64,000 nt of DNA. It comes from Candidatus Nomurabacteria bacterium. Its GTDB lineage: Bacteria; Patescibacteriota; Minisyncoccia; Phycocordibacterales; UBA9973. The DNA lies in assembly GCA_026395995.1 (NCBI GenBank), contig JAPLXQ010000010.1, positions 218,179 to 282,178 on the forward strand, given 5' to 3'. The notes beneath the pieces were generated by a model that saw only the letters and a list, made by a program, of their open reading frames with translations, was not told the origin of the DNA and ran no database searches. The translations under genes and the position numbers were made by a program. Below, piece after piece: positions 3,799-62,678 of the stretch. The first letter of the stretch is position 1; every line of letters starts with the position of its first letter.

Positions 3799-4578
3799 AT
3801 GAATCGAAATTACATAAAATTAAAGACTTTTTTATTGGGAATTATTTTAATAAGTCCTGCTGTTTTTCCTAATTTTAGTCTAGCAAAAGATAAAATAGAA
3901 ATTCTTCCAGCCAATGTCCCGATATTGGTATATCATAGTATTTCCATAGATAATAAAAATATAAGCTTAAAGAATCAGCAATTTTTTGTTGAACAAAAAA
4001 TGTTTGAAAAACAAATTCTTTATTTAAAAGAAAAGGGTTATGATATTATTTCCTTTGGTACCCTTGTAGATCATATTTCAAAATCTTTACCATTTGATAA
4101 AAAATCTGTTGTTTTTACTTTTGATGATGGAGATGAAAATCAGTATTTAAATGCTTTTCCAATTCTTAAAAAACATGGAGTCACAGCGACATTTTTTATC
4201 TACACAAATCCTATTGGACGTAATAAACATTTTATGACATGGGAGCAAGTAATAGAGCTCGATAAAGCAGGAATGACGATCGCCGATCATACCAAATATC
4301 ATCCTTTTTTGAGAAAAATTACAGACCCGAAGGTTTTAATTAATGAAATAGTAGATAGTAAAAATATTATAGAGAAAAAGCTAGGTAAAAAAGTTCTATT
4401 TTTTGCGTATCCATTTTATCAAACTAGCCCTGATTCTATTGCTTTATTGAAGAAATCTGGCTATACAGCTGCAAGAGGTGGTTATTATAAGAATTCAAAT
4501 ACCATAGACAGGCTTTTTGAAATGCGAGCAATGGAACCAAACAATAATTTTAAGCAATTTTCATCTATATTCAAATAA
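3799..4578 (+). CDS. polysaccharide deacetylase (NodB homology domain) family protein
   Basis: Signal peptide; VFTFDDGDENQY (TFDDG motif) and HTKYHP His motifs. Confidence 0.75.
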   Translation: MNRNYIKLKTFLLGIILISPAVFPNFSLAKDKIEILPANVPILVYHSISIDNKNISLKNQQFFVEQKMFEKQILYLKEKGYDIISFGTLVDHISKSLPFDKKSVVFTFDDGDENQYLNAFPILKKHGVTATFFIYTNPIGRNKHFMTWEQVIELDKAGMTIADHTKYHPFLRKITDPKVLINEIVDSKNIIEKKLGKKVLFFAYPFYQTSPDSIALLKKSGYTAARGGYYKNSNTIDRLFEMRAMEPNNNFKQFSSIFK

Positions 4579-5105: not shown

Positions 5106-5933
5106 TTAATTTTTGTATTCTTGTTCTTTTCCACCTTCAGGAATCACTTTTTTGATTACAAATTTACCATCTTCGAGCTTGGCATCTGTGACGATAATTC
5201 TTTTACCTTCTTTGAAAAAGAAAGTTCTAGGCCATAGGGAATACGCTCGGAATTTATTGTATTTTTGTTCCTCGGAATCTCCTTCATTTAAAAGCCCATC
5301 TTCTTTTTTAATTTTTTTACAGTTTGTAGCTTGTGTTTCATCTTGAATTTGAAGCCCCTGATAAGGGGTTGGGGTTGTATTTAGCGTTTTTATTAAAAGT
5401 TCACCACCAATTTTGATTAATTTTTTACGTAATTCTGTAGCATGTTCATCTGGATTTATAGATACTTTTTCCATGGCGATTATTGGTCCTGTATCCATCT
5501 TATAAACCATTTTTTGAATGGCTATACCTGTCTCAGCGTCACCATTTAAAATAGCTGATTCGACAGGTGAAGCTCCACGGTATTTCGGAAGTAGAGAGTA
5601 ATGAATATTAATAGAACCATACTTAGGTATATTTATAATTTCTTCAGATAAAATTTTTCCGTAAGCGACGACTATAGCGAGTCGAAAGTTGAAAGTTGAA
5701 AGTTTTAAAGTAAATTCAGTATCTAACTTTTCAGGTTGTAAGTACGGAATGTTGTTTTCAATCGCCCATACTTTAGTTGGACTAGGAGTCATCAGCATCT
5801 TTCTTCCTTGAGGCCTATCTGGAGAAGTGATAATTAATGTAGGTGTATATCCATTTATTTTTAAAATAGATAAGGTCTCTGAAGCTACATCAGGTGTACC
5901 AAAAAAAACGAAATTGTAATTATTTGTATTCAC
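5106..5933 (-). CDS. fmt: methionyl-tRNA formyltransferase
   Basis: N-terminal FFGTPDVASETL, SLLPKYRGASPV motif; conserved synteny fmt-def. Confidence 0.9.
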   Translation of the reverse strand: MNTNNYNFVFFGTPDVASETLSILKINGYTPTLIITSPDRPQGRKMLMTPSPTKVWAIENNIPYLQPEKLDTEFTLKLSTFNFRLAIVVAYGKILSEEIINIPKYGSINIHYSLLPKYRGASPVESAILNGDAETGIAIQKMVYKMDTGPIIAMEKVSINPDEHATELRKKLIKIGGELLIKTLNTTPTPYQGLQIQDETQATNCKKIKKEDGLLNEGDSEEQKYNKFRAYSLWPRTFFFKEGKRIIVTDAKLEDGKFVIKKVIPEGGKEQEYKN

Positions 5934-10815: not shown

Positions 10816-10977
10816 ACTTTTTTATAAATTAAAAATCCGCAGTTCATTCAATATGAAAAGCGGATATAAGGCCTAGGTGTCGGAGGGCTGCATGCCCCTT
10901 CGGTGTTACCCTAAATCCAAACTTTTAATATCTAGATACTACTATATAAGAGGGTAAAATGCAAGACTGTTAATTCA

Positions 10978-11030
10978 ACCCGCCCCACCCCTAACCCCTC
11001 CCCAAAATTTGAAGATTTTAGAGAGGGGAT
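10978..11030. repeat. GC-rich palindromic mini-element (same family)
   Basis: cgccccacccctaacccctcccc aaaatttgaagatttta gagagggg; shares the CGCCCCACCCC plus CCCCTCC/GGAGGGG architecture with 8529-8599. A further GC-rich patch lies at 10870-10915. Confidence 0.5.
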
Positions 11031-11105
11031 TAAGAAGCGATGTGAATTGCAAGAGTTATATTTTTATGGTAATGTAATGGAAAATAATCTTTAAAAAAAT
11101 AAGGT

Positions 11106-11546
11106 ATGAGAAAGAATATGTCCTACAAACAAGTTCCATCAGAAATTTTGGTTATTTTAGAAATCGTAAAAAAATTAGAAAAAACAAAAGCTGAAGAACT
11201 TATGATTATGCATCGTGAAATGGATCCTGAAATAGATGAACTAATAAAAAATACTATTTCAAAATTTTCCAAAGAAGAAAGGGAATTTTATGTTAAAACA
11301 GTTAAAGAATTTAATTTTCGTGATAAAAAATATTACAAAGATGCAAAAATAGAAAAAAGTGATTGGTATGATTATATGGACGAGAGATGTAGATTTGCCA
11401 GTCATCTGCTTGATATTATTGATGTAAGATTAAATCCAGATAGAAAATCATACTCTCTGGAAATTGACTTAGGGAATCCTGGTTATTTTAAACCTAAACC
11501 TGAGCCTAAATCATCTACAAGAAGTTTGGGATTAACTTTTGAATAA
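11106..11546 (+). CDS. hypothetical protein
   Basis: 146-aa ORF followed by a strong terminator. Confidence 0.45.
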   Translation: MRKNMSYKQVPSEILVILEIVKKLEKTKAEELMIMHREMDPEIDELIKNTISKFSKEEREFYVKTVKEFNFRDKKYYKDAKIEKSDWYDYMDERCRFASHLLDIIDVRLNPDRKSYSLEIDLGNPGYFKPKPEPKSSTRSLGLTFE

Positions 11547-11558
11547 TGTTGATTTTTA

Positions 11559-11594
11559 GCCCCGCTGACACATGTCAGCGGGGCATTTTATTTT
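11559..11594 (+). terminator. rho-independent terminator
   Basis: gccccgctgacacatgtcagcggggc perfect hairpin followed by ATTTTATTTT. Confidence 0.7.
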
Positions 11595-11629
11595 GTATTT
11601 GTTTATAAAATTTGCTATAATATAGTCCT

Positions 11630-12256
11630 ATGATAATCACATATTTCGGAAAAGAATTTTTTAAGATACAACAAGGAGATATGGTTGTAGCTTTTAATCC
11701 TATTAGTAAAGAGTCCAAAGCTTCAGGTGGGGGCAAATTTGGTGCAGATATTGCACTCGTTACTACTAATCATAAAGATTATAATGGCCTAGGTCAGCTT
11801 TCTCATGGAGAGCGTGAACCTTTTGCTGTTACAGGTCCTGGAGACTATGAAGTTCGAGAAGTTTTCATTAAAGGTTTAATGTCTGATGCAGAACTCGACA
11901 GTAAAAAATATGTTAATACAATTTATTTCTTAACGATTGATGGTATCAATATTGTCTTTTTGGGAGCATTATCAAATCCAGAAATTTCCAAAGAAGTTCG
12001 TGAAGTTATAAATGAACCAGATGTCCTTTTTATTCCAGTCGGCGGTAATGGAGTTTTAGACGCAAAAGTTTCAGCTAAATTAGCATCTTCTCTTGAACCA
12101 AAATTAGTAATTCCTATGGATTATGATAAAGATACATTAAAACATTTTCTAAAAGAAATGGGAGCAGAAAATGCTGAAGTCGTAGACAAATTAACCTTAA
12201 AGAGAAAAGATTTAGATGGAAAAGAAGCCGATGTAATAGTCTTACAATCAGAATAA
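11630..12256 (+). CDS. MBL-fold metal-dependent hydrolase (UPF0173-like)
   Basis: About 208 aa, MIITYFGKEFFKIQ...VTTNHKDYNG pattern of small beta-lactamase-fold hydrolases. Confidence 0.5.
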   Translation: MIITYFGKEFFKIQQGDMVVAFNPISKESKASGGGKFGADIALVTTNHKDYNGLGQLSHGEREPFAVTGPGDYEVREVFIKGLMSDAELDSKKYVNTIYFLTIDGINIVFLGALSNPEISKEVREVINEPDVLFIPVGGNGVLDAKVSAKLASSLEPKLVIPMDYDKDTLKHFLKEMGAENAEVVDKLTLKRKDLDGKEADVIVLQSE

Positions 12257-12273
12257 TAATTTTTTAAAATATT

Positions 12274-12522
12274 ATGATCAAACATATACATAAAACAATT
12301 CATCGATTGAAACAAGAACCAGAAGATGTTCGACAGCATATCGTTCATATTGTGACTTTTGCTTGTGCTGTTATTTTGATAATTCTTTATTTTTATAGTT
12401 TAGGTAAAAAATTAACAGATAAAGAAATACAGACATCTATTCAAAAAGATGCGAAACCTTTTACTGTTTTGAAAGACAATTTAGTAGATGGGTATAAAAG
12501 TATTTCTACATCCGGTAATTAA
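12274..12522 (+). CDS. small membrane protein, unknown
   Basis: 82 aa, one TM helix. Confidence 0.35.
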   Translation: MIKHIHKTIHRLKQEPEDVRQHIVHIVTFACAVILIILYFYSLGKKLTDKEIQTSIQKDAKPFTVLKDNLVDGYKSISTSGN

Positions 12523-12542
12523 TATGTTAATATAATATAGTT

Positions 12543-15014
12543 ATGGCAAAAAAAACTTCACCAACAACTGAAGAAGAACCTCTTATTAACCCAAGCCTAG
12601 GTATTGTGCCAGTTAATATTGTTTCTGAAATGAAAGAATCCTACCTCGCTTATGCGATGTCTGTCATTACTGCGCGCGCGCTTCCTGATGTTCGTGACGG
12701 ATTAAAACCAGTTCACCGTCGTATTTTGTTTGCGATGAATGAAATGGGTCTTACTTCTTCTTCACGTTTCCGTAAATCTGCAGCTGTAGTCGGAGATGTG
12801 CTTGGAAAATATCATCCACATGGTGATGCTTCTGTCTATGATGCTATGGTTAATATGGCGCAAGATTTTTCTTATCGTTACCCTTTGGTAATAGGACAAG
12901 GAAACTTCGGTTCCATCGATGGAGATAATGCTGCTGCTATGCGTTATACCGAAGCTAAGATGTCTAAAGTTTCAAATGAGCTTCTTCGTGATTTAGAAAA
13001 AGAAACTGTTGATTTCAGACCAAACTATGATCAGACTCGTAAAGAGCCTGTAGTTTTTCCTTCTGCTGTTCCAGCACTTTTGTTGAATGGTACTCTCGGT
13101 ATTGCTGTCGGTATGGCGACAAATATTCCTTCACACAATCTCGCAGAAGTCGTCGATGCGACTTTGCATTTGATTGAAAATGATGAAGCGACTACTGAAG
13201 ATTTGATGCAGTTTGTGAAAGGCCCTGATTTTCCTACTGGCGGACTCGTTTATGGCCAAAAAGATATGTTGCATGCTTATTCTACAGGGCGTGGAGGTGT
13301 CGTTTGTCGTGGTGAAGCTGAAATAATTGAGCAAAAAGGTGGAATGTTTCAAATCATTATTACTTCAATTCCTTTTCGTGTAAACAAATCAAATTTGATT
13401 ATGGCTATTGCTGAGCTTGTTCAAGAAAAAAAGATTGAAGGTATTAAAGGTTTGCGTGATGAATCTACAAAAGATATCCGTATTGCTATCGATTTGAAAG
13501 CTGGAGCTTATCCTGAAAAAGTTTTAAATTATATTTACAAAAATACTCAACTCGAACAAAATTTTAATTTCAATATGGTAGCTCTTGTTGACGGTGTTCC
13601 TCAGACTCTTTCATTGAAATCAATTTTATCTGAATTTATTGGTCACCGAAAAGAGGTTGTCAAAAGACGTTCTATTTATGAACTTCGAAGAGCCGAAGAG
13701 CGTGAGCATATTTTACTTGGCTTGAAAAAAGCATTGGATTTTATTGATAAAGTTATCAAGACAATTCGTGCTTCTAAAGATGGAGCAAGTGCTAAGATTG
13801 CTTTGATGAAAGAATTTAAATTCTCCGATTTACAAGCTCAAGCTATTTTGGATATGAAATTACAAAAGCTTGCTGGTCTTGAGAGAAAGCTGATTGAAGA
13901 AGAATTAAAAGAGCGTCAAGCTTTCATTAAAGAGATGAAAGATTTGATTGCTAGTGCAAAGAAAATGTTGAAAGTTGTCTCCGAAGAATTAACAGAAATT
14001 CGTGAAAAATATGCCGACGAAAGACGTACAAAAATAATCAAAGGAGGAGTGAAAGAAATTTCTGAAGATGATCTTGTTCCAGAAAAAGAAACAATGCTAG
14101 TCTTTACTGCTGGTGGCTATATTAAGCGCACTGATCCTGGTGAATACAAATCACAAAAGCGTGGAGGTGTCGGCGTTGTCGACCTTGAAACAAAAGAAGA
14201 AGATTTTGTGACAATGCTCGTGTCTGGTTCTACACATAGTGATTTATTGTTCTTCACAAACTTAGGTAAAGCATATCAAATAAAAATGTATGACATACCA
14301 GAAGGCCGTCGCGCGACAAAAGGAAAATCAATTATGAATTTCTTGTCTTTGGCTGGTGAAGAAAAAGTCACTTCTATTTTGCCAATGCCAAAAGAATTGA
14401 AAAAGAATCCTATTTCTCTAATGCTTGTAACTAAAAATGGAACTGCCAAGAAGATGGCCGGAGAAGCCTTTAAAGATGTTCGCCGAAGTGGACTTATTTC
14501 TATTAAGCTTGATAAAGGTGATGAGCTTGCTTCAGCACTTATTACAGAAAAAGGAGATGAAGTAATGCTCGCTACAAGTGAAGGACAGTCAATCCGATTC
14601 AAAGAATCCGACATTCGTGAAATGGGACGTACTGCAGGAGGTGTGCGTGGAATGAAGCTTGGTAAAGGTGATAGTATTATCGGAGTTGAAGTAATAAAGA
14701 AAGATAATAAAGATGGATCATTCCTTACAATGTCTGCAAATGGACTCGGAAAGAAAACATCACTTAAAGAATATAAAGTACAAAACCGTGGAGGTTCAGG
14801 TATCAAAACTGCAAAAGTCACTCCAAAAACTGGCAAGCTCATCGTAGCGAAAGTTATCACAGGCAATGAAGAAGAATTAATTGCTATGTCTAAAAAAGGA
14901 CAAGTTATCCGTACAGCCCTAAAAGATATTCCATCACTCGGAAGACAAACTCAAGGTGTCACAATCATGCGCCTCCGCGCTGGTGATGGTATTGCATCAC
15001 TCACGTGTGCATAG
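12543..15014 (+). CDS. gyrA: DNA gyrase subunit A
   Basis: [25 protein letters not shown], active-site Tyr region, C-terminal beta-pinwheel repeats. Confidence 0.95.
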
Positions 15015-15023
15015 AATCATTTT

Positions 15024-15557
15024 ATGATTTATTTTGTACGACACGGAGAAAGTGAAGCTAATGTTAGAAATGTCTTTGCTGGACAAAAAGATGATTCGCT
15101 TCTTACTGAAAAAGGTAAGGAACAGGCACTTGCCACTGCTAAAGAAATAAAGAAGGAAAATCTTACTTTCGATCGAATTATTTCTTCGCCACTTCAGAGA
15201 TCTTTAGAAACAGCTAGAATAATTGCAAAAGAAATTGGTTTTGATTTTTCAAACATTATTATAGATAATCGTATTAATGAATATGATATGGGCAGTATTA
15301 CTGGGAAACCTTATGGAGTTATTTCTTCTGAAATTTTAGTGGGTGCTGAAAATGCAGAAAATCCAGAATTATTTAAAGAACGTGTTTATTTTTGTATTAA
15401 AGAATTAAATCAACTACCAGAAAATATATTAGTTGTTAGTCATGCTGGAGTTGGGAGAATATTGGAAACTATAAAAGAAGGTAAAGAAGCAAAATATTTT
15501 TATGATTTACCACCTTTTCCTAATGCTTCTATAATTAAGATAGATTGGATTAAATAA
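15024..15557 (+). CDS. histidine phosphatase family protein (phosphoglycerate mutase-like)
   Basis: MIYFVRHGESEANV (RHGE motif). Confidence 0.75.
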   Translation: MIYFVRHGESEANVRNVFAGQKDDSLLTEKGKEQALATAKEIKKENLTFDRIISSPLQRSLETARIIAKEIGFDFSNIIIDNRINEYDMGSITGKPYGVISSEILVGAENAENPELFKERVYFCIKELNQLPENILVVSHAGVGRILETIKEGKEAKYFYDLPPFPNASIIKIDWIK

Positions 15558-15578
15558 GGTTTTATATTTATTTATAGT

Positions 15579-15599
15579 GTGCAAAGTCGAACTTTGCAC
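15579..15599. repeat. REP-like 21-bp palindrome, copy 1 (inverted relative to copies 2 and 3)
   Basis: gtgcaaagtcgaactttgcac. Confidence 0.7.
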
Positions 15600-15627
15600 A
15601 AATATAATTCTTTTGTATAATTTAATT

Positions 15628-16302
15628 ATGAAAAGTAAAAATATTGCTCCCGAAGAGTATTATCATATTTACAACAGGGGAATGCAAAAACAACCTATTT
15701 TTGAAAATGACTCAGACAGGCTACGTTTTTTATTTTTGATTTTAACCTTTCAAGGTAAAGAACTTATAAAAAATATTAGTCGTGAAGTAAAACAAAATGT
15801 GCAAAGTTCGACTTTGCACATTTCTAAAGAAACAACTAAAAATGTTGCGCAAAATCGACAAGTTGAATTAGTTAGTTTTTGTTTAATGCCAAACCATTTT
15901 CATTTGATTGTAAAAGAAAAAGAAGAAGGTGGAATAGCAAAATATATGCAAAGAATTTTAACTAGCTATACAAAGTATTTTAATAAAAAATATAATAAAA
16001 GCGGACATCTTTTTCAGGGGTCTTATAAGAGTATTTTAATTGAAGATGATCGGCAGTTAATGCATTTGTCTGCCTATATTCATAAAAATCCTTCCGAAAT
16101 TAAAGGTTGGAAAAATAAAGAAGATAAATATTATTGGTCAAGTTATAATGATTATATTTATGAAAATCGTTGGGATGAATTACTTTCACAAAATATTATC
16201 CTAGATAGATATAATATAGATAAAGAAAAGGGAACTTATAAGAAATTCGTCGAAACCAGTTTAGCTAAAGAAACTGTGCAAAGTTCGACTTTGCACAGTT
16301 AA
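15628..16302 (+). CDS. REP-associated tyrosine transposase (RAYT, IS200/IS605 TnpA-like HUH enzyme)
   Basis: YHIYNRG N-terminal motif, HUH motif LMPNHFHLIV, catalytic Tyr region GHLFQGSYKS...YIHKNP; flanked by REP palindromes. Start moved to ATG 15628; the tracked N-terminus translates REP copy 1. Confidence 0.7.
   Translation: MKSKNIAPEEYYHIYNRGMQKQPIFENDSDRLRFLFLILTFQGKELIKNISREVKQNVQSSTLHISKETTKNVAQNRQVELVSFCLMPNHFHLIVKEKEEGGIAKYMQRILTSYTKYFNKKYNKSGHLFQGSYKSILIEDDRQLMHLSAYIHKNPSEIKGWKNKEDKYYWSSYNDYIYENRWDELLSQNIILDRYNIDKEKGTYKKFVETSLAKETVQSSTLHS
15799..15819. repeat. REP-like palindrome, copy 2, inside the RAYT ORF
   Basis: gtgcaaagttcgactttgcac, encodes ..VQSSTLHIS.. in frame. Confidence 0.7.
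16276..16296. repeat. REP-like palindrome, copy 3, at the RAYT 3-prime end
   Basis: gtgcaaagttcgactttgcac, encodes the C-terminal ..VQSSTLHS*. Confidence 0.7.
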
Positions 16303-16309
16303 AAAAAAT

Positions 16310-17236
16310 ATGATTCCAAAACATAATATTTCTAGTTTAGAAGGTAAAGAATTAGAAAAGGCCATCAAAAATGACTTTGGTTTTGAGATTACAAATACAG
16401 AAAAAATAACAAAAGGATATTCTAATCAAGTTTATAAAGGAAATCTTGAAAATAAAAATGTTTTCATAAGGATGAATAAAGACCCTAGAGTGTTCGAAGC
16501 AGAAGTTCTTGGATATAAAAGATTTGAAGAACAAGGTATACCTGTACCAAAAATAATTGCCTATAAAGAAAATCCTTCATCAATTGGACTTCCTGCAATG
16601 ATCATGTCTTCAGCTGAAGGCAATATTATTCCCGAACTAAAGCTGTCTCCAGAAGAAAAGGATATTGTTTTTGAAAATGTAGGAAAATTGTTAAAAAAAA
16701 TTAATGAAACTAAGTTAAAAGGCTACGGTCCTTTAAAGGTAGAGAATGGAGAATTGGTTGGTAAATTTTCAACATATAAAGAGCAAGATGAATCACGCGG
16801 AGAATATAATAAAAAAGTTTTTGATTTTGCAGTAGAAAAGAATTATATAATTGGTGAAGATATTGAAAAAGTTAAAAAAGTATATGAAGAAATTAGTTTA
16901 TTAAATATAGGAAATCAGACATCACTATTGCATCATGATATGCACAGAGGACATTTTTTTGTTAAAGGGACTGAAATATCAGGAATTATTGACCTAGGAG
17001 CTTTGATGGCTGGTGATCCACGATATGATATAGCAATAAGTTTGGCTCATCAACATCCTAGAGAGCAAGAAGCTTTTAAAAAAGGTTATGGTGAATTAGC
17101 TAATGACCCAATGGTGAATAAATATTTAATTACTGTTTTAGTAAGAAAAATATTTTTTAGAAATAAAGACCATGTAAAAGGAAATGTCGAAGCGTTACTT
17201 CCAACCCTAAAGGATGCTTTGGAAAAATTATCTTAA
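16310..17236 (+). CDS. aminoglycoside/choline-kinase-like phosphotransferase (APH family)
   Basis: Catalytic HHDMHRGHFFV (Brenner motif) and IDLGALMAGDPRYDIA (DxG-like) motifs. Confidence 0.65.
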   Translation: MIPKHNISSLEGKELEKAIKNDFGFEITNTEKITKGYSNQVYKGNLENKNVFIRMNKDPRVFEAEVLGYKRFEEQGIPVPKIIAYKENPSSIGLPAMIMSSAEGNIIPELKLSPEEKDIVFENVGKLLKKINETKLKGYGPLKVENGELVGKFSTYKEQDESRGEYNKKVFDFAVEKNYIIGEDIEKVKKVYEEISLLNIGNQTSLLHHDMHRGHFFVKGTEISGIIDLGALMAGDPRYDIAISLAHQHPREQEAFKKGYGELANDPMVNKYLITVLVRKIFFRNKDHVKGNVEALLPTLKDALEKLS

Positions 17237-26881: not shown

Positions 26882-26885
26882 AATG

Positions 26886-26958
26886 TGCACCCAGCAGGGA
26901 TCGAACCTGCGACATTCTCCTTAAGAGGGAGCTACTCTACCAGCTGAGTTATGGGTGC
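26886..26958 (-). tRNA. tRNA-Lys (anticodon CTT)
   Basis: Cloverleaf with acceptor gcaccca/tgggtgc, anticodon loop ctCTTaa. Confidence 0.7.
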
Positions 26959-27060
26959 ATATATTACTTCTATCTTTCTTTCAACTTACAAATTACTATT
27001 TTTCTCGTCCTACCAAAACAGTTATGGGTGCTTTTCAAAAAATCAAAAATTTGATTTCTG

Positions 27061-27079
27061 GTGCCCGGAGTGGGGGTCG
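27061..27079. repeat. 19-bp direct repeat of the tRNA-Leu(TAA) 3-prime end (second copy 27179-27197)
   Basis: gtgcccggagtgggggtcg occurs twice, about 100 bp apart, bracketing a short non-tRNA insert. Confidence 0.65.
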
Positions 27080-27179
27080 GCTATTACATAGCCAGGTGCT
27101 TTTCAATTTACTACGTAAATAATGAAAAGCCTTTCGACTCCCCACACGAAAGCAAAGCAGTTTGCTTTCTTCCGTGCTG

Positions 27180-27261
27180 TGCCCGGAGTGGGGGTCGAAC
27201 CCACATCCCTTGCGAGACACGATTTTAAGTCGTGCGCGTATACCAATTCCGCCATCCGGGC
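27180..27261 (-). tRNA. tRNA-Leu (anticodon TAA)
   Basis: Acceptor gcccgga/tccgggc, long variable arm, loop ctTAAaa. Confidence 0.8.
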
Positions 27262-36281: not shown

Positions 36282-36950
36282 GTGGGTTTTATTATGAAAA
36301 AAGATTTACAACAAAAAGCAAAGAAATTAAGAGCTGAGGGTTATTCAATTAAAGAACTTCAGAATATTTTAAATGTATCAAAGAGTACAATTTCTTTATG
36401 GGTAAGAGATATTGAACTTTCTAAAGATGCTCAAATACGCATTCAAAATAATTACACAAAAGGTCAATTGGCTTCTCAAAAAACTATACAAAAACAAACT
36501 CAAGAAAAAAATATTTTAGCTGATAGTTTCGCAGAAAATATTATCAAACAAATAGATATTTCTTTTGAAAATTCATTAGTATTGTGTTCGATGATATATC
36601 AGTGTGAGGGTAGTAAAAACATAAAAGATTCTGTTACTTTTACAAATTCTGATCCAGCTCTAATAAAGAATTTCTTGTTCTTTTTTAGAAAAAGTTTTCA
36701 TTTAGATGAAAGTAAATTCAGAGTTTTAATGCACTTACATAGTTATCATAATGAAAATACGCAAAAGAAATTTTGGTCTAATATTACAAATATTCCCACA
36801 AAAAATTTTTTAAAAACTTTCAATAAAGAAAGTACTGGTTCTTATAAAAAAGAAGGGTATCAAGGATGTATTCAAGTTCGTTATCGTGATGTTGTAATGG
36901 GTAGAAAAATTCAAGCGGTTGCAAAAAAGTTTATGGAAAGGTATAAATAG
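36282..36950 (+). CDS. HTH-domain protein with putative single-motif LAGLIDADG-like endonuclease domain (paralog A)
   Basis: N-terminal HTH (KKLRAEGYSIKELQNILNVSKSTISLWV); core LVLCSMIYQCEGSK...NSDP...FLFFFRKSF is homologous to 61541-62167 and resembles LAGLIDADG helix plus beta-sheet. Ends 8 nt before tRNA-Trp. Confidence 0.4.
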   Translation: MGFIMKKDLQQKAKKLRAEGYSIKELQNILNVSKSTISLWVRDIELSKDAQIRIQNNYTKGQLASQKTIQKQTQEKNILADSFAENIIKQIDISFENSLVLCSMIYQCEGSKNIKDSVTFTNSDPALIKNFLFFFRKSFHLDESKFRVLMHLHSYHNENTQKKFWSNITNIPTKNFLKTFNKESTGSYKKEGYQGCIQVRYRDVVMGRKIQAVAKKFMERYK

Positions 36951-36957
36951 TATGCAC

Positions 36958-37028
36958 GGGCCTATAGTTCAGTGGTAGAATAAACGTCTCCAACACGTTT
37001 GACCGGGGTTCGAATCCTCGTGGGCCCG
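36958..37028 (+). tRNA. tRNA-Trp (anticodon CCA)
   Basis: Acceptor gggccta/tgggccc, loop ctCCAac. Confidence 0.75.
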
Positions 37029-38892: not shown

Positions 38893-39022
38893 TTAATAGT
38901 CTTGAAAAATCATTACATTTATGATAATCTTTGTTTATTGGTGTGTTTGTCGGCGTAGTTGTTTTGGTATATAACATTAAATACTAAACATACGTTGCTT
39001 AAAAATATAAATAGGTTTTCAT

Positions 39023-39095
39023 GTCGGCGTAGCTCAGTTGGTAGAGCATAGCACTCATAAAGCTAAGGTCACAGGTTCAATCCCTGTCGCCGACA
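39023..39095 (+). tRNA. tRNA-Met or Ile2 (anticodon CAT; elongator-type)
   Basis: Acceptor gtcggcg/cgccgac, loop ctCATaa; lacks initiator features. Confidence 0.7.
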
Positions 39096-39154
39096 CAAAT
39101 TATAAGAAGTATATAGGGTAGTATATATTACTGTCACCATGATATAATATATAG

Positions 39155-39826
39155 GTGCCAGTCTATAAAAAGGTAAATAAAGATTTTTTTAAAAAATGGT
39201 CACCTGAAATGGCTTATGTTTTAGGTTTTTTATTTGCTGATGGAAATATTGTTCATACAAAAAGAAATACTTGGTTTTGGTCTTTACAAATTACCGATAA
39301 GGATATTTTAATAAAGATAAAAAAAGAAATTAATTCATCACATAAGGTTTCGTTTAAAAAGAAGGTTTTAAATAATAAACAGTTGTATCGTTTACAGATT
39401 GGAAGCAAAGAAATGTGTGAAGATTTAATTAAATTAGGTTTAACTCCACAAAAAAGTAAAACAATGATATTTCCACAAGTTCCAGAAAAATATTTTTCTG
39501 ATTTTTTGCGTGGTTATTTTGATGGAGATGGTGGAGTTTGGTTTGGTTTAAAAAATAAAAAAAATATTAATCAATCTTATGTAATTAATGTTTGCTTTAC
39601 TTCAGGTAGTAAAGATTTTTTAATCTTCCTGAGAGGTATTTTGAATAAAAAATCTATTTTAGGTGGTTCTTTGGTAGAAAAAGAAAGAGGGTTTGATTTA
39701 AAATATAGTATCAAAAATTCTTTGATTTTATATAAAATAATGTATAATAGTAATGTTCTCAAAAATAACCTGTTTTTAGAAAGAAAAAGAGCTATTTTTG
39801 AGAAGTTTATATGTTTGCGATCGTAG
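39155..39826 (+). CDS. LAGLIDADG homing endonuclease (double-motif, single-chain type)
   Basis: Two motifs: LGFLFADGNI and LRGYFDGDGGVWF. The stop codon overlaps the first 10 nt of the intron-containing tRNA. Confidence 0.7.
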   Translation: MPVYKKVNKDFFKKWSPEMAYVLGFLFADGNIVHTKRNTWFWSLQITDKDILIKIKKEINSSHKVSFKKKVLNNKQLYRLQIGSKEMCEDLIKLGLTPQKSKTMIFPQVPEKYFSDFLRGYFDGDGGVWFGLKNKKNINQSYVINVCFTSGSKDFLIFLRGILNKKSILGGSLVEKERGFDLKYSIKNSLILYKIMYNSNVLKNNLFLERKRAIFEKFICLRS

Positions 39827-40130
39827 CTCAACTGGTTAGAGCACCCGCCTGTAGATTCGTGCAGCTTTCTGTCGAAATGGCAGATTGAAACTCTTTGGGA
39901 TATCGGTGAAGGCTAAGTTTGCCGTTTTGGTGAATATGCGAATACCGAGGGAACCCTTCCACATTTTTACTTTATAATAAATAAGTAAAGAGAAGGGGCG
40001 CCGTAGAGACTAGATACCGAAGCACCTAAATTCATTTTAATGAACACGGTGAAGATATAGTCCACGCCTTTATGAAAATATTGGATTTAGTGCACGTGGG
40101 AGGTTGCCGGTTCAAGCCCGGTCGATCGCG
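39817..40130 (+). tRNA. tRNA-Asp (anticodon GTC) interrupted by a group I-like intron; exons 39817-39852 and 40093-40130
   Basis: The exons assemble into a cloverleaf with acceptor gcgatcg/cgatcgc, D-arm gctcaactggttagagc, anticodon stem cccgc/gtggg, loop ctGT|Cac, discriminator G; the intron sits between anticodon positions 35 and 36. Confidence 0.6.
39853..40092 (+). other. group I-like intron (about 240 nt) within the tRNA-Asp anticodon loop
   Basis: The 5-prime splice site follows U and the intron ends in G; gtgcagc can pair with exon ccugu (P1); P7 halves AGACTAg... and AAGATATAGTCc match the conserved R/S elements; size matches known bacterial tRNA group I introns. Confidence 0.6.
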
Positions 40131-54232: not shown

Positions 54233-54237
54233 TATTG

Positions 54238-54308
54238 CTGCCAGACCTGGACTCGAACCAAGATAGTCTCCTTCAGAGGGAGATGTCCTACCATTAGACG
54301 ATCTGGCA
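54238..54308 (-). tRNA. tRNA-Gln (anticodon CTG)
   Basis: Sense tgccagatcgtctaatggtaggacatctccctctgaaggagactatcttggttcgagtccaggtctggcag; U1-A72, loop ctCTGaa. Confidence 0.65.
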
Positions 54309-54430
54309 ATGTTTATATTCTGTCTTTTAAAAACCTTCTTCCAAATCGATTCTTTAAATCTTCTGTATACCCTATATAAAGATTTTCATCTTTTGAACTT
54401 TTTAAAACATAAGTGTAATACATCTTGTTT

Positions 54431-54495
54431 ATGTCCTACCATTACCCGCCCGCAACGCCTGAGCTTGCGATGGCGGGCGGGGACGATCTGGCAAT
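54431..54495. repeat. partial duplicate of the tRNA-Gln 5-prime region, itself split by a 38-bp GC-rich palindrome
   Basis: atgtcctaccatta + cccgcccgcaacgcctgagcttgcgatggcgggcgggg + acgatctggcaat reproduces 54283-54310 of the tRNA, with the palindrome replacing a single G. Confidence 0.6.
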
Positions 54496-61540: not shown

Positions 61541-62167
61541 ATGAGAGGTATACAAACTTCTAATAAAATAGTTCAAGAAATTAAAAAACTTAGATCTGAA
61601 GGGGATAGTATTCTTGAGATATCAAAAATAGTTGGTAAAAGTAAGTCTATTGTTTCAAAATACGTTAAAGATATAAAAATTCTTCCACAGTATGAATATC
61701 TTCTAAAAGAAAAACAAGGAGGTAGTAAGTCGCGTTCTTTAAAAGAGTGGAAGGATTCAGAGATAAAATCAAAAAAAATAATTAATACTCTTTCTAGTAA
61801 AGAAAAATTATTAATTCTAGCATGTTTATATTGGGGAGAAGGAACTAAAACTGAACTTAATATTATAAATAGTGATCCAGAAATGCTTCGGGTTTTTATA
61901 ATTTCTTTAAAAGAATTAGGAATAGATAATTCTAAAATAAAAGCAACAATAAGAATTTATGAAGATTTAAAAGATAACGATATTATTAATTTTTGGTCAA
62001 AGGCTATTGATCTTCCAAAAGAATGTTTTAAAGGTATTAATTTATTAAAAGGTAAAAAAGTTGGTAAATTAAAACATGGTATGTGTAGAATAAGGGTTGA
62101 AAAAAGTAAAGATTACTTTAAACTAATTATGTCTATAATAGAAAGAATTAAAGACTTGTCCTTATAG
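61541..62167 (+). CDS. HTH-domain protein with putative single-motif LAGLIDADG-like endonuclease domain (paralog B)
   Basis: HTH (KKLRSEGDSILEISKIVGKSKSIVSKYV); LILACLYWGEGTKTELNIINSDPEMLRVFIISLKELGI resembles the LAGLIDADG helix plus following beta-sheet. The stop overlaps tRNA-Arg by 10 nt. Confidence 0.4.
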   Translation: MRGIQTSNKIVQEIKKLRSEGDSILEISKIVGKSKSIVSKYVKDIKILPQYEYLLKEKQGGSKSRSLKEWKDSEIKSKKIINTLSSKEKLLILACLYWGEGTKTELNIINSDPEMLRVFIISLKELGIDNSKIKATIRIYEDLKDNDIINFWSKAIDLPKECFKGINLLKGKKVGKLKHGMCRIRVEKSKDYFKLIMSIIERIKDLSL

Positions 62168-62536: not shown

Positions 62537-62541
62537 TTTTT

Positions 62542-62556
62542 AAGCCAAGATAGCTG
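62542..62556. repeat. 15-bp direct repeat of the tRNA-Phe 5-prime end (second copy 62593-62607)
   Basis: taagccaagatagct is duplicated 51 bp upstream of the tRNA. Confidence 0.55.
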
Positions 62557-62595
62557 TTTTAGTAAATAACGCAGAATTTTAAAATTAAATAATAA

Positions 62596-62668
62596 GCCAA
62601 GATAGCTCAGTTGGTAGAGCGCTCCCCTGAAGAGGGAGATGTCCCCAGTTCAAATCTGGGTCTTGGCA
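62596..62668 (+). tRNA. tRNA-Phe (anticodon GAA)
   Basis: Acceptor gccaaga/tcttggc, loop ctGAAga. Confidence 0.8.
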
Positions 62669-62678
62669 CACTAAAATA

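Follow-up and report, generated by a model that had tools for sequence, protein, structure and literature searches.

Displaced tRNA ends, a tRNA-end-matched structured element and small nuclease cassettes in a Candidatus Nomurabacteria contig

Transfer RNA (tRNA) genes are classic landing sites of mobile DNA, the usual signature being an integrase together with a repeat of the tRNA 3' end; indeed, the textbook identity block of tRNA-targeting integrases runs from the T-loop to the 3' end, and it is the 3' part of the tRNA that becomes duplicated. Gene ends may also carry non-coding hairpin elements of 100-150 nucleotides (nt), such as REP/BIME/REPIN, miniature inverted-repeat transposable elements (MITEs) and integron attC sites. 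Partial duplication of tRNAs by integrating elements is well known (PMC9897764), fungal mitochondrial cob and atp6 have nuclease genes that separate the gene from a partly duplicated copy of its end (PMC6279837), and a GIY-YIG homing enzyme, SegB, is known from a tRNA gene cluster of phage T4 (PMC2330249). We have analysed a stretch of 64,000 nt from a Candidatus Nomurabacteria bacterium (contig JAPLXQ010000010.1, positions 218,179 to 282,178, assembly GCA_026395995.1; hereafter the window), in which five tRNA genes, Leu(TAA), Gln, Phe, Lys and Met, carry small inserts, with the old gene end staying beside the new one. The five loci are two distinct things, one acting on the 5' side (Gln, Phe, Lys and Met) and the other on the 3' side (Leu(TAA)), where positions 27061-27197 hold a member of an undescribed family of tRNA-end-matched structured elements. 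This streamlined, uncultured lineage would then have two other ways of occupying a tRNA gene that spare the gene itself, one through very small nuclease cassettes, which take over its promoter and restore its 5' end, and one through a folded non-coding element that holds the displaced 3' end base-paired.

Direct repeats at the ends of tRNA genes

The window has a G+C content of 33% and contains 12 tRNA genes recognised by ARAGORN, plus one further tRNA gene with an intron; housekeeping genes of ordinary bacterial type adjoin the tRNA loci, and the closest relatives of two marker proteins are metagenome-assembled genomes (MAGs) named Candidatus Nomurabacteria or Paceibacterota. A first-pass annotation of this DNA had reported direct duplications at the ends of three tRNA genes; all three exist, and a systematic scan of the window has added two more, at Lys and Met. 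At Leu(TAA), where a 19-bp repeat around an insert of about 100 bp had been described, the exact 19-mer GTGCCCGGAGTGGGGGTCG is found at 27061-27079 and 27179-27197, on either side of 99 nt. The reported 28-bp 5' segment of Gln with a GC palindrome inside it is likewise present: a 28-nt segment of the gene (54283-54310) is found again in two exact blocks of 14 nt each (54431-54444 and 54482-54495), which a 37-nt GC palindrome (54445-54481) separates in the displaced copy. At Phe the 15-nt repeat TAAGCCAAGATAGCT is real and occupies 62541-62555 and 62593-62607, so that its first coordinate had been placed one base too far (62542) and the insert measures 37 nt instead of 36. The 5' end of tRNA-Lys recurs over 12 nt (26947-26958 at 27020-27031) and that of tRNA-Met over 11 nt (39022-39032 at 38948-38958), or over 22 nt if mismatches are allowed.

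We have compared these repeats with chance expectation by locally aligning the tRNAs to random 296-nt segments of the window, for which the 99th percentile of the scores is 22; the five loci score 38 (Leu), 30 (Phe), 28 (Gln), 24 (Lys) and 24 (Met). A census was also made of exact copies of at least 11 nt of a tRNA end in the flanking DNA; it covered 160 related loci (labelled L followed by a number) with 373 fully flanked tRNA genes, and copies on the wrong side, copies of the tRNA middle and copies in other orientations made up nine control classes. Copies of the 5' end were found upstream in 24 cases and copies of the 3' end downstream in 29 cases in sense and 26 as the reverse complement, versus 0-1 in each of the nine control classes. 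Clearly, tRNA-end copies are strictly polar, common and lineage-wide. The alignment scores and the polarity census rule out a chance origin, which the first-pass annotation had named as the outcome that would undo its observation; the pairs of intact and partial ends are non-random and recur in relatives. A simple tandem duplication was rejected as well, given that the insert is not repeated after the second copy, and so were the repeats of diversity-generating retroelements, as the differences from copy to copy are not confined to A positions.

The repeats mark insertions that rebuild a tRNA end. On balance we lean towards the reading that small selfish inserts repeatedly enter tRNA gene ends in this Candidatus Nomurabacteria-like lineage (Patescibacteria, or candidate phyla radiation), each with a replacement end. 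According to this reading every insert would carry a substitute for the gene end that it displaces, the tRNA staying intact and the old end persisting as a fragment, and the direct repeats would therefore correspond to the old end plus the new end. The inserts would persist because the gene end gets rebuilt, and they may spread via DNA repair or recombination between alleles, with nucleases acting in cis or in trans.

The structured element downstream of tRNA-Leu(TAA)

The tRNA-Leu(TAA) gene lies on the minus strand at 27179-27261 (ARAGORN; Rfam tRNA model, 59.5 bits); its last 19 nt (27179-27197) are the proximal repeat, and it encodes no CCA (...GGGCACAG). It is followed on the same strand by the core of a type 1 element at 27080-27178, delimited by its fold, a covariance model and covariation. 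This comprises an anti-acceptor segment (27171-27177), hairpin P1 (27148-27169), an anti-T segment (27133-27145) which is the reverse complement of the T-loop and the T-stem 3' strand with one extra A, hairpin P2 (27098-27131) and hairpin P3 (27079-27093). The distal copy of the tRNA 3' end, also on the minus strand (27061-27079), forms the 3' arm of the element and runs from the T-loop to one base beyond the discriminator; it leads into a CCA (27059-27061) that is absent from the gene, and a terminator-like hairpin with a T-run is seen in the sequence after the element (27037-27057, minus strand). The covariance-model match covers 27055-27180 (91.5 bits, E 2e-21), and the minus strand at 27055-27182 has a minimum free energy of -48.5 kcal/mol (z -4.68) and a fold that matches the family model. 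No open reading frame (ORF) is present in the 99-nt insert. Within the window the element is found at Leu-taa and absent at Tyr, being present at one of the 12 tRNAs.

The family was found via the regions downstream of tRNA-Tyr in relatives, in which the 3' copies are the last arm of a conserved module of about 120 nt. Its parts follow in a fixed order: a complement of the acceptor 3' strand, P1, an exact reverse complement of the T-loop and T-stem 3' strand, P2, P3 and the copy of the tRNA 3' end. An alignment of 16 units has a mean identity of 63%; RNAalifold recovers P1-P3 from it, with compensatory change in 17 of 21 predicted pairs. When all five helices are considered, two of which are long-range, 84% of the cells are paired, versus 32-55% in slid controls, compensatory (two-sided) change occurs in 24 of 39 pairs, and none of 500 shuffles reaches the observed covariation score. 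The covariance-model census (threshold E <= 0.01), run on a first locus set plus the window and then on a second locus set, returned 47 copies, 44 from the former and 3 from the latter. Copies with a tRNA in range lie 0-45 nt, or one array length, downstream of a tRNA on the same strand, the exception being L034, where an island stands between the two. The adjoining tRNAs represent 11 isoacceptors (Tyr, Leu-taa/tag/caa/cag, Cys, Lys-ctt/ttt, Trp, Gly-ccc and Arg-cct), and in most copies an antisense arm of 10-13 nt matches the adjoining tRNA. A second core type, and a third in L075, follow the same arm logic. The distribution is patchy, with 16 of 60 tRNA-Tyr loci filled and 35 of 60 empty, and truncated remnants exist (L019).

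Some units stand in tandem arrays of two or three, in part with mixed core types (L054, about 15930-16340; L026, 14141-14330; L027; L014, 209-412; L073, 3106-3685; L079, 13404-13780), and neighbouring units in these arrays show compensatory differences in P2. Mirror-image elements were also observed on the 5' side of Leu and Tyr tRNAs (L026, about 5215-5330; L034, 13848-13960; L055, about 4390-4495), in which the tRNA 5' end is followed by a hairpin with a P1-like AAACTGCTTT tip and then by an arm antisense to the 5' end. Among about 20 intact distal arms some four are followed by CCA where the gene has none (window 27059-27061; L040, about 4427; L077; L207, about 12432), about one being expected from a rough base-composition estimate. 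A derivation of the copy from mature tRNA was considered in view of these four; the opposite case occurs in L079, where the gene has CCA and the copy is without it, and the evidence for such a derivation is suggestive at most.

Several other origins were tried and rejected. The CUGA...GAAA stretch of some units fails the hammerhead core by eye, its A is not conserved, and none of the ribozyme and intron models matched. In two scans of viral contigs there were chance matches in coding DNA or nothing, and strictly vertical inheritance is disfavoured by a weak link between unit similarity and host similarity (Spearman 0.24). In Rfam 15 only tRNAs pass the gathering score in the window, and permissive scans of two units (L010 and L079) returned noise; within Rfam and the literature searched, no described counterpart of the element was found.

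One could suppose that no mobile element is involved, and that slippage duplications, tandem or fold-back, at the palindromic T-arm and D-arm generated the copies while gene conversion kept them alike. Indeed, the T-arm is quasi-palindromic and the 3' end is repeated exactly, in inverted form, in the antisense arm; in some units (L079, L018) the tRNA end, the terminator and the antisense arm even make up one long palindrome. However, the P1-P3 cores are homologous beside different tRNAs and across genomes, the Leu unit of the window being 80% identical to the Tyr unit of L010, no repeat of the insert follows the second copy, and GIY-YIG genes lie inside the 5' duplications, all of which makes slippage a very remote explanation.

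The first-pass annotation had read the repeats as the classic attachment-site (att) duplications of site-specific integration, which would make them scars of integrase islands or phages that integrated in tRNA genes and then lost nearly all their DNA. The Leu repeat does extend from the T-loop to the 3' end, integrating elements commonly duplicate part of a tRNA (PMC9897764), and the lineage does harbour islands in which large serine recombinase genes, with Resolvase, Recombinase and Zn_ribbon_recom domains, run antisense into tRNA 3' ends (L034, 14046-18232, Tyr; L033, 4134-5650, Leu-tag; L012, 2-610, Leu-taa). In respect to integrase-made duplications, the loci described here are alike in that a direct repeat of a tRNA end brackets foreign DNA while the tRNA remains intact, and unlike in that mostly 5' ends are repeated and a conserved structured module fills the insert. 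A repeat of the tRNA 3' part holds for Leu(TAA) only, as the other four window loci repeat the 5' end, and no integrase was found between the repeats in the window or in the relatives examined. The right junction of the L034 island reads ...caatagagaca|CAC, followed by the tRNA terminator and then by the structured element; the crossover identity, taken from an internal attP-like junction, amounts to CAC(CA) only, and junction identity in the recombinase islands is 3-6 bp. The L034 island sits between the tRNA and the element and therefore entered beside an element already there, and in L075 an island likewise lies between tRNA-Tyr and the terminator plus element. The insert at Leu is moreover a conserved, covarying family common to 11 isoacceptors and no random leftover, which also disposes of the suggestion that it is the decayed remnant of an excised element. 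A serine-recombinase att scar at Leu was rejected on the position of the two islands, and the att explanation as a whole, largely refuted, is improbable. As separate observations, an inverted copy of the joined element ends is retained inside L034 (15788-16100), and the 5.7-kb L075 island (10976-16440) encodes a class I lysyl-tRNA synthetase, an S51 peptidase and an aldo-keto reductase, but no recombinase, the S51 peptidase being found also in the L034 island.

With REP/BIME/REPIN, MITEs and attC sites the family shares tandem arrays, a patchy distribution among relatives and a structure that is kept more than the sequence. In those elements, however, the stem ends are conserved genome-wide, whereas in this family conservation concerns the loop and core, the stem being a copy from the adjacent tRNA. 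A MITE-like element, another of the origins proposed earlier, is not compatible with arms that differ by locus and equal the adjacent tRNA, nor with a repeat length that is not fixed and varies from 11 to 28 nt.

A distinct scenario is that the 3' element is a structured RNA useful to the host, a tRNA-like partner beside its tRNA. It might serve in the formation of the 3' end of the precursor tRNA, a cut by RNase P or RNase Z at the tRNA-like helix freeing the tRNA ahead of it; alternatively, an enzyme that recognises the acceptor arm might be decoyed or regulated by it. In agreement with this, the acceptor helix and the discriminator are the same as the neighbour's, compensatory change keeps the structure across many genomes, the fold of the window unit has the low z value given above, and the unpaired junction nucleotides GAAAG and (GU)AYCUG and a UGUAA loop are invariant. 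Several units lie within tRNA clusters, 0-2 nt after the discriminator, and must hence be co-transcribed with the tRNAs, and the encoded CCA at the window, L040, L077 and L207 is a further point in its favour. The likeness to tRNA-like RNAs (the transfer-messenger RNA domain, viral tRNA-like structures, YrlA) consists of an acceptor-type helix, a discriminator and sometimes a CCA, with one arm replacing the D and anticodon arms. Unlike those RNAs, the element takes its acceptor sequence from the neighbouring tRNA and has no Rfam match; its acceptor-like helix is 65% paired in the alignment, CCA is absent in most units, and the T-loop is fully paired, a two-hairpin junction of P2 and P3 standing in its place. 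Such pairing of the whole T-loop by the antisense arm is not tRNA mimicry, and a host function also accords poorly with the patchy occurrence at tRNA-Tyr loci and at one window tRNA, with tandem arrays, with core types that are interchangeable on the same arms, with the truncated remnants and with the want of any Rfam family or known analogue. We regard a host-useful RNA as doubtful.

From the sequences, a selfish, non-coding insert that masks a displaced tRNA end appears as the likeliest reading of the 3' element. On the tRNA-sense strand the element of about 120 nt would fold into three hairpins, closed by a long helix between the antisense arm and the displaced tRNA 3' end. It would be co-transcribed with the tRNA; the antisense arm may mask the spare 3' end from competing for the tRNA body, and the tRNA-like acceptor helix may let tRNA-processing enzymes trim the element off. 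More tentatively, the element could belong to a programmable class, in which a conserved three-hairpin core carries sense and antisense arms templated from the adjoining tRNA end; such an element would either be mobile and non-coding, with a stem that takes on a copy of the target, or be an RNA encoded in cis that controls the maturation of the neighbouring tRNA by pairing with its 3' end or imitating it. Mobility of the 3' element would mean an element that copies its stem from its target, and a function at the RNA level would make it an unrecognised tRNA-linked RNA family.

Nuclease cassettes and ORF-less inserts upstream of tRNA genes

On the 5' side the most complete inserts are found in relatives, where the original upstream flank is followed by tRNA positions 1-10 to 1-15, one or more GC-rich hairpins, a pseudo D-loop stretch, a GIY-YIG ORF of 80-86 amino acids (aa) and the intact tRNA. 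Intact ORFs of this kind lie between a pseudo 5' end and the tRNA in L130 (Gln(ttg)), L022 (Tyr) and L157, L180 and L187 (Phe), and match PF01541 with E values of 1e-15 to 1e-16. In a search of 2.3 Mb, 9 of 11 GIY-YIG homologs were situated 5-110 nt upstream of a tRNA on the same strand. The check for larger elements between the repeats in relatives, advised by the first-pass annotation, thus yields intact GIY-YIG genes at 5' repeats and no integrase. One allele pair was found: at tRNA-Gln(ttg), L129 (empty) and L130 (filled), both about 90% related to the window by marker protein, have identical upstream sequence as far as tRNA position 10. Since these flanks are identical to that point, it is the upstream 5' copy that represents the original start of the gene, promoter included, and the insert therefore supplied the new 5' end. 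The GIY-YIG cassettes show two of the features expected of homing cassettes, namely an ORF inside the insert and filled and empty alleles with common flanks.

In the window, the tRNA-Gln(CTG) gene (54237-54308, minus strand; ARAGORN) is preceded on the same strand by a displaced 5' part (54431-54495), with positions -2 to 12 at 54482-54495, positions 13 to 26 at 54431-54444 and the GC-rich palindrome between them. Between displaced part and gene, a truncated GIY-YIG ORF (54313-54423, minus strand) encodes 36 aa, MYYTYVLKSSKDENLYIGYTEDLKNRFGRRFLKDRI, and ends 4 nt before the tRNA; it matches PF01541 with E 3e-7 and 31.1 bits, the curated cut-off being 22.6 bits. Intact homologs occupy the same position in L130 and L022, and as the ORF aligns with the N-terminus and the extreme C-terminus of these intact relatives, it is seen as an internally deleted nuclease gene. 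At Phe (plus strand), the displaced 5' end (positions -3 to 12, 62541-62555) comes directly after the stop of an upstream 85-aa ORF; it is followed by a 37-nt ORF-less insert that starts GTTTTAGTA (62556-62592), whose last 3 nt (TAA) are part of the repeat, and by the tRNA-Phe(GAA) gene (62596-62669; ARAGORN). At Lys (minus strand), the displaced 5' end (27010-27031) consists of 12 exact nt (27020-27031) and then GTTTTGGTAG, and by sequence inspection an ORF-less insert of 61 nt (26959-27019) separates it from the intact tRNA-Lys(CTT) gene (26885-26958; ARAGORN). At Met (plus strand), the displaced end (38948-38969) reads TGTCGGCGTAG, then TTGTTTTGGTA, and a 63-nt insert reaches the tRNA-Met(CAT) gene (39023-39096; ARAGORN). 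The Phe, Lys and Met inserts, of 37-63 nt, contain no ORF and are too short for one. From the displaced Lys 5' end to the Leu 3' end that was displaced, CCA included, the distance is 29 nt, with the terminator-like hairpin in between; the Leu-Lys spacer of relatives measures 25-64 nt, and by this comparison the 29-nt stretch looks like a fossil of the ancestral spacer.

Over nine examples, displaced copy and gene mismatch at 7% of positions 1-12, 100% of positions 13-15, 13% of positions 16-21 and 75% after 22. At positions 13-15 of the displaced copy GTT replaces CAG in 27 of 27 instances. The GTTTTGGTA insert is found only in window tRNAs with the D-arm CTCAG(C/T)TGGTAGAG, in three of three versus none of the nine others, and L129 holds a homologous insert at Phe, the same as that of the window but with its own, different acceptor sequence. 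From these features the Phe, Lys and Met inserts are inferred to be ORF-less kin of the nuclease cassettes, probably entering at position 12/13 of one D-arm type. It is their architecture and site that tie them to the cassettes, tRNA-Phe of L157 likewise having a cassette, immediately behind the same upstream gene; no nuclease gene was found in a GTTTTGGTA-type insert among the relatives. A promoter made by the GTTTTGGTA motif was rejected, as the hexamer spacings disagree among Lys, Met, Phe and L004.

As we read these loci, the insert would enter in the D-arm region and leave upstream of it the first 10-26 nt together with the original promoter, the old start being disabled by a GC hairpin or, at positions 13-15, by the change of CAG to GTT. 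Next would come a small GIY-YIG nuclease gene, riding on the tRNA promoter, and then the complete tRNA. The Gln insert would be such a cassette with an internal deletion in its nuclease gene, and those at Phe, Lys and Met would be ORF-less counterparts of 37-63 nt. The idea that the repeats are footprints of tRNA-targeting endonuclease genes, also voiced in the first-pass annotation, therefore holds at Gln, where the truncated ORF is present, is plausible at Phe, Lys and Met, and fails at Leu.

The 5' cassettes are of the known nuclease-plus-partial-duplicate kind, new in bacterial tRNA genes and on the 5' side. As with the free-standing homing-endonuclease genes of fungal cob and atp6, a gene and a displaced fragment of its end enclose a small nuclease gene, degenerate nuclease ORFs are common and presence varies among relatives; tRNA genes are, as phage T4 SegB shows, a known setting of GIY-YIG homing enzymes. 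Unlike the fungal and T4 systems, the hosts here are bacterial tRNA genes whose 5' end is duplicated with its promoter, the putative nucleases have just 80-86 aa, a bare catalytic domain, the old end is disabled by GC hairpins, and inserts of 37-63 nt that have no ORF persist.

Pairs of GC-rich hairpins of the form CCGAC-N4-8-GTCGG were observed ahead of GIY-YIG ORFs (L157, 18000-18072; L163; L180, 12500-12596 and 14560-14660; L187, 21380-21458); they are conspicuous in this AT-rich DNA and resemble GC hairpin elements of fungal mitochondria. Conserved pseudo 5' halves without an ORF also lie upstream of tRNA-Cys (L002, L010, L013, L042, L050, L060, L078, L207), where they consist of positions 1-18, an insertion of about 27 nt and then positions 24-35, matching each species' own anticodon-stem sequence, and upstream of tRNA-Gly(ccc) (L143, L205, L207), where they span positions 1-23 to 1-28.

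A number of points weigh against selfish inserts with replacement ends. On the 5' side, the 80-86 aa proteins have no recognisable second or DNA-binding domain, PF01541 covering residues 1-70; their designation as homing endonucleases rests on position and polymorphism instead of activity, and the reading does not explain how the enzyme would spare the adjacent intact tRNA. Also, the upstream 5' copies match each species' own acceptor sequence, which would need recurrent re-invasion or gene conversion. On the 3' side, no mechanism accounts for the matching of the antisense arm to 11 tRNAs, as target duplication explains the sense arm only; within and next to the 3' elements we found no nuclease, recombinase or reverse transcriptase, and no filled and empty pair close enough to read its insertion boundaries was obtained. 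The ratio of G.U to A.C is 16:4 in hairpins P1-P3, a modest point in favour of the tRNA-sense strand, but 8:15 in the long-range helices, and the conserved junction nucleotides and the covariation, maintained over some 20-25% host protein divergence, could equally mean an RNA useful to the host.

Whatever their origin, the tRNA-end fragments can mislead tRNA annotation and those island finders that use tRNA-fragment repeats, and they are markers for strain-level variation in Patescibacteria.

Other observations near the tRNA genes of the window

Two paralogous proteins (36282-36950 and 61541-62167, both on the plus strand; 26% identity, E 3e-15) have an N-terminal helix-turn-helix and a YxxEG(S/T)K motif. 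Both genes reach the start of a tRNA gene or run into it (Trp at 36958, Arg-CCT at 62158), and no displaced tRNA fragment was found upstream of either.

The thirteenth tRNA gene, tRNA-Asp(GTC) (39817-40130, plus strand), was missed by ARAGORN and has its anticodon loop split by a group I intron of about 235 nt (RF00028, 39851-40084, E 6.5e-12), which scores 49.8 bits against a gathering score of 50. Between tRNA-Met and tRNA-Asp, and overlapping the first 10 nt of the latter, lies an ORF with a LAGLIDADG domain (39155-39826, plus strand; PF14528, E 6.5e-8), which may be a free-standing homing endonuclease linked to the tRNA-Asp intron.

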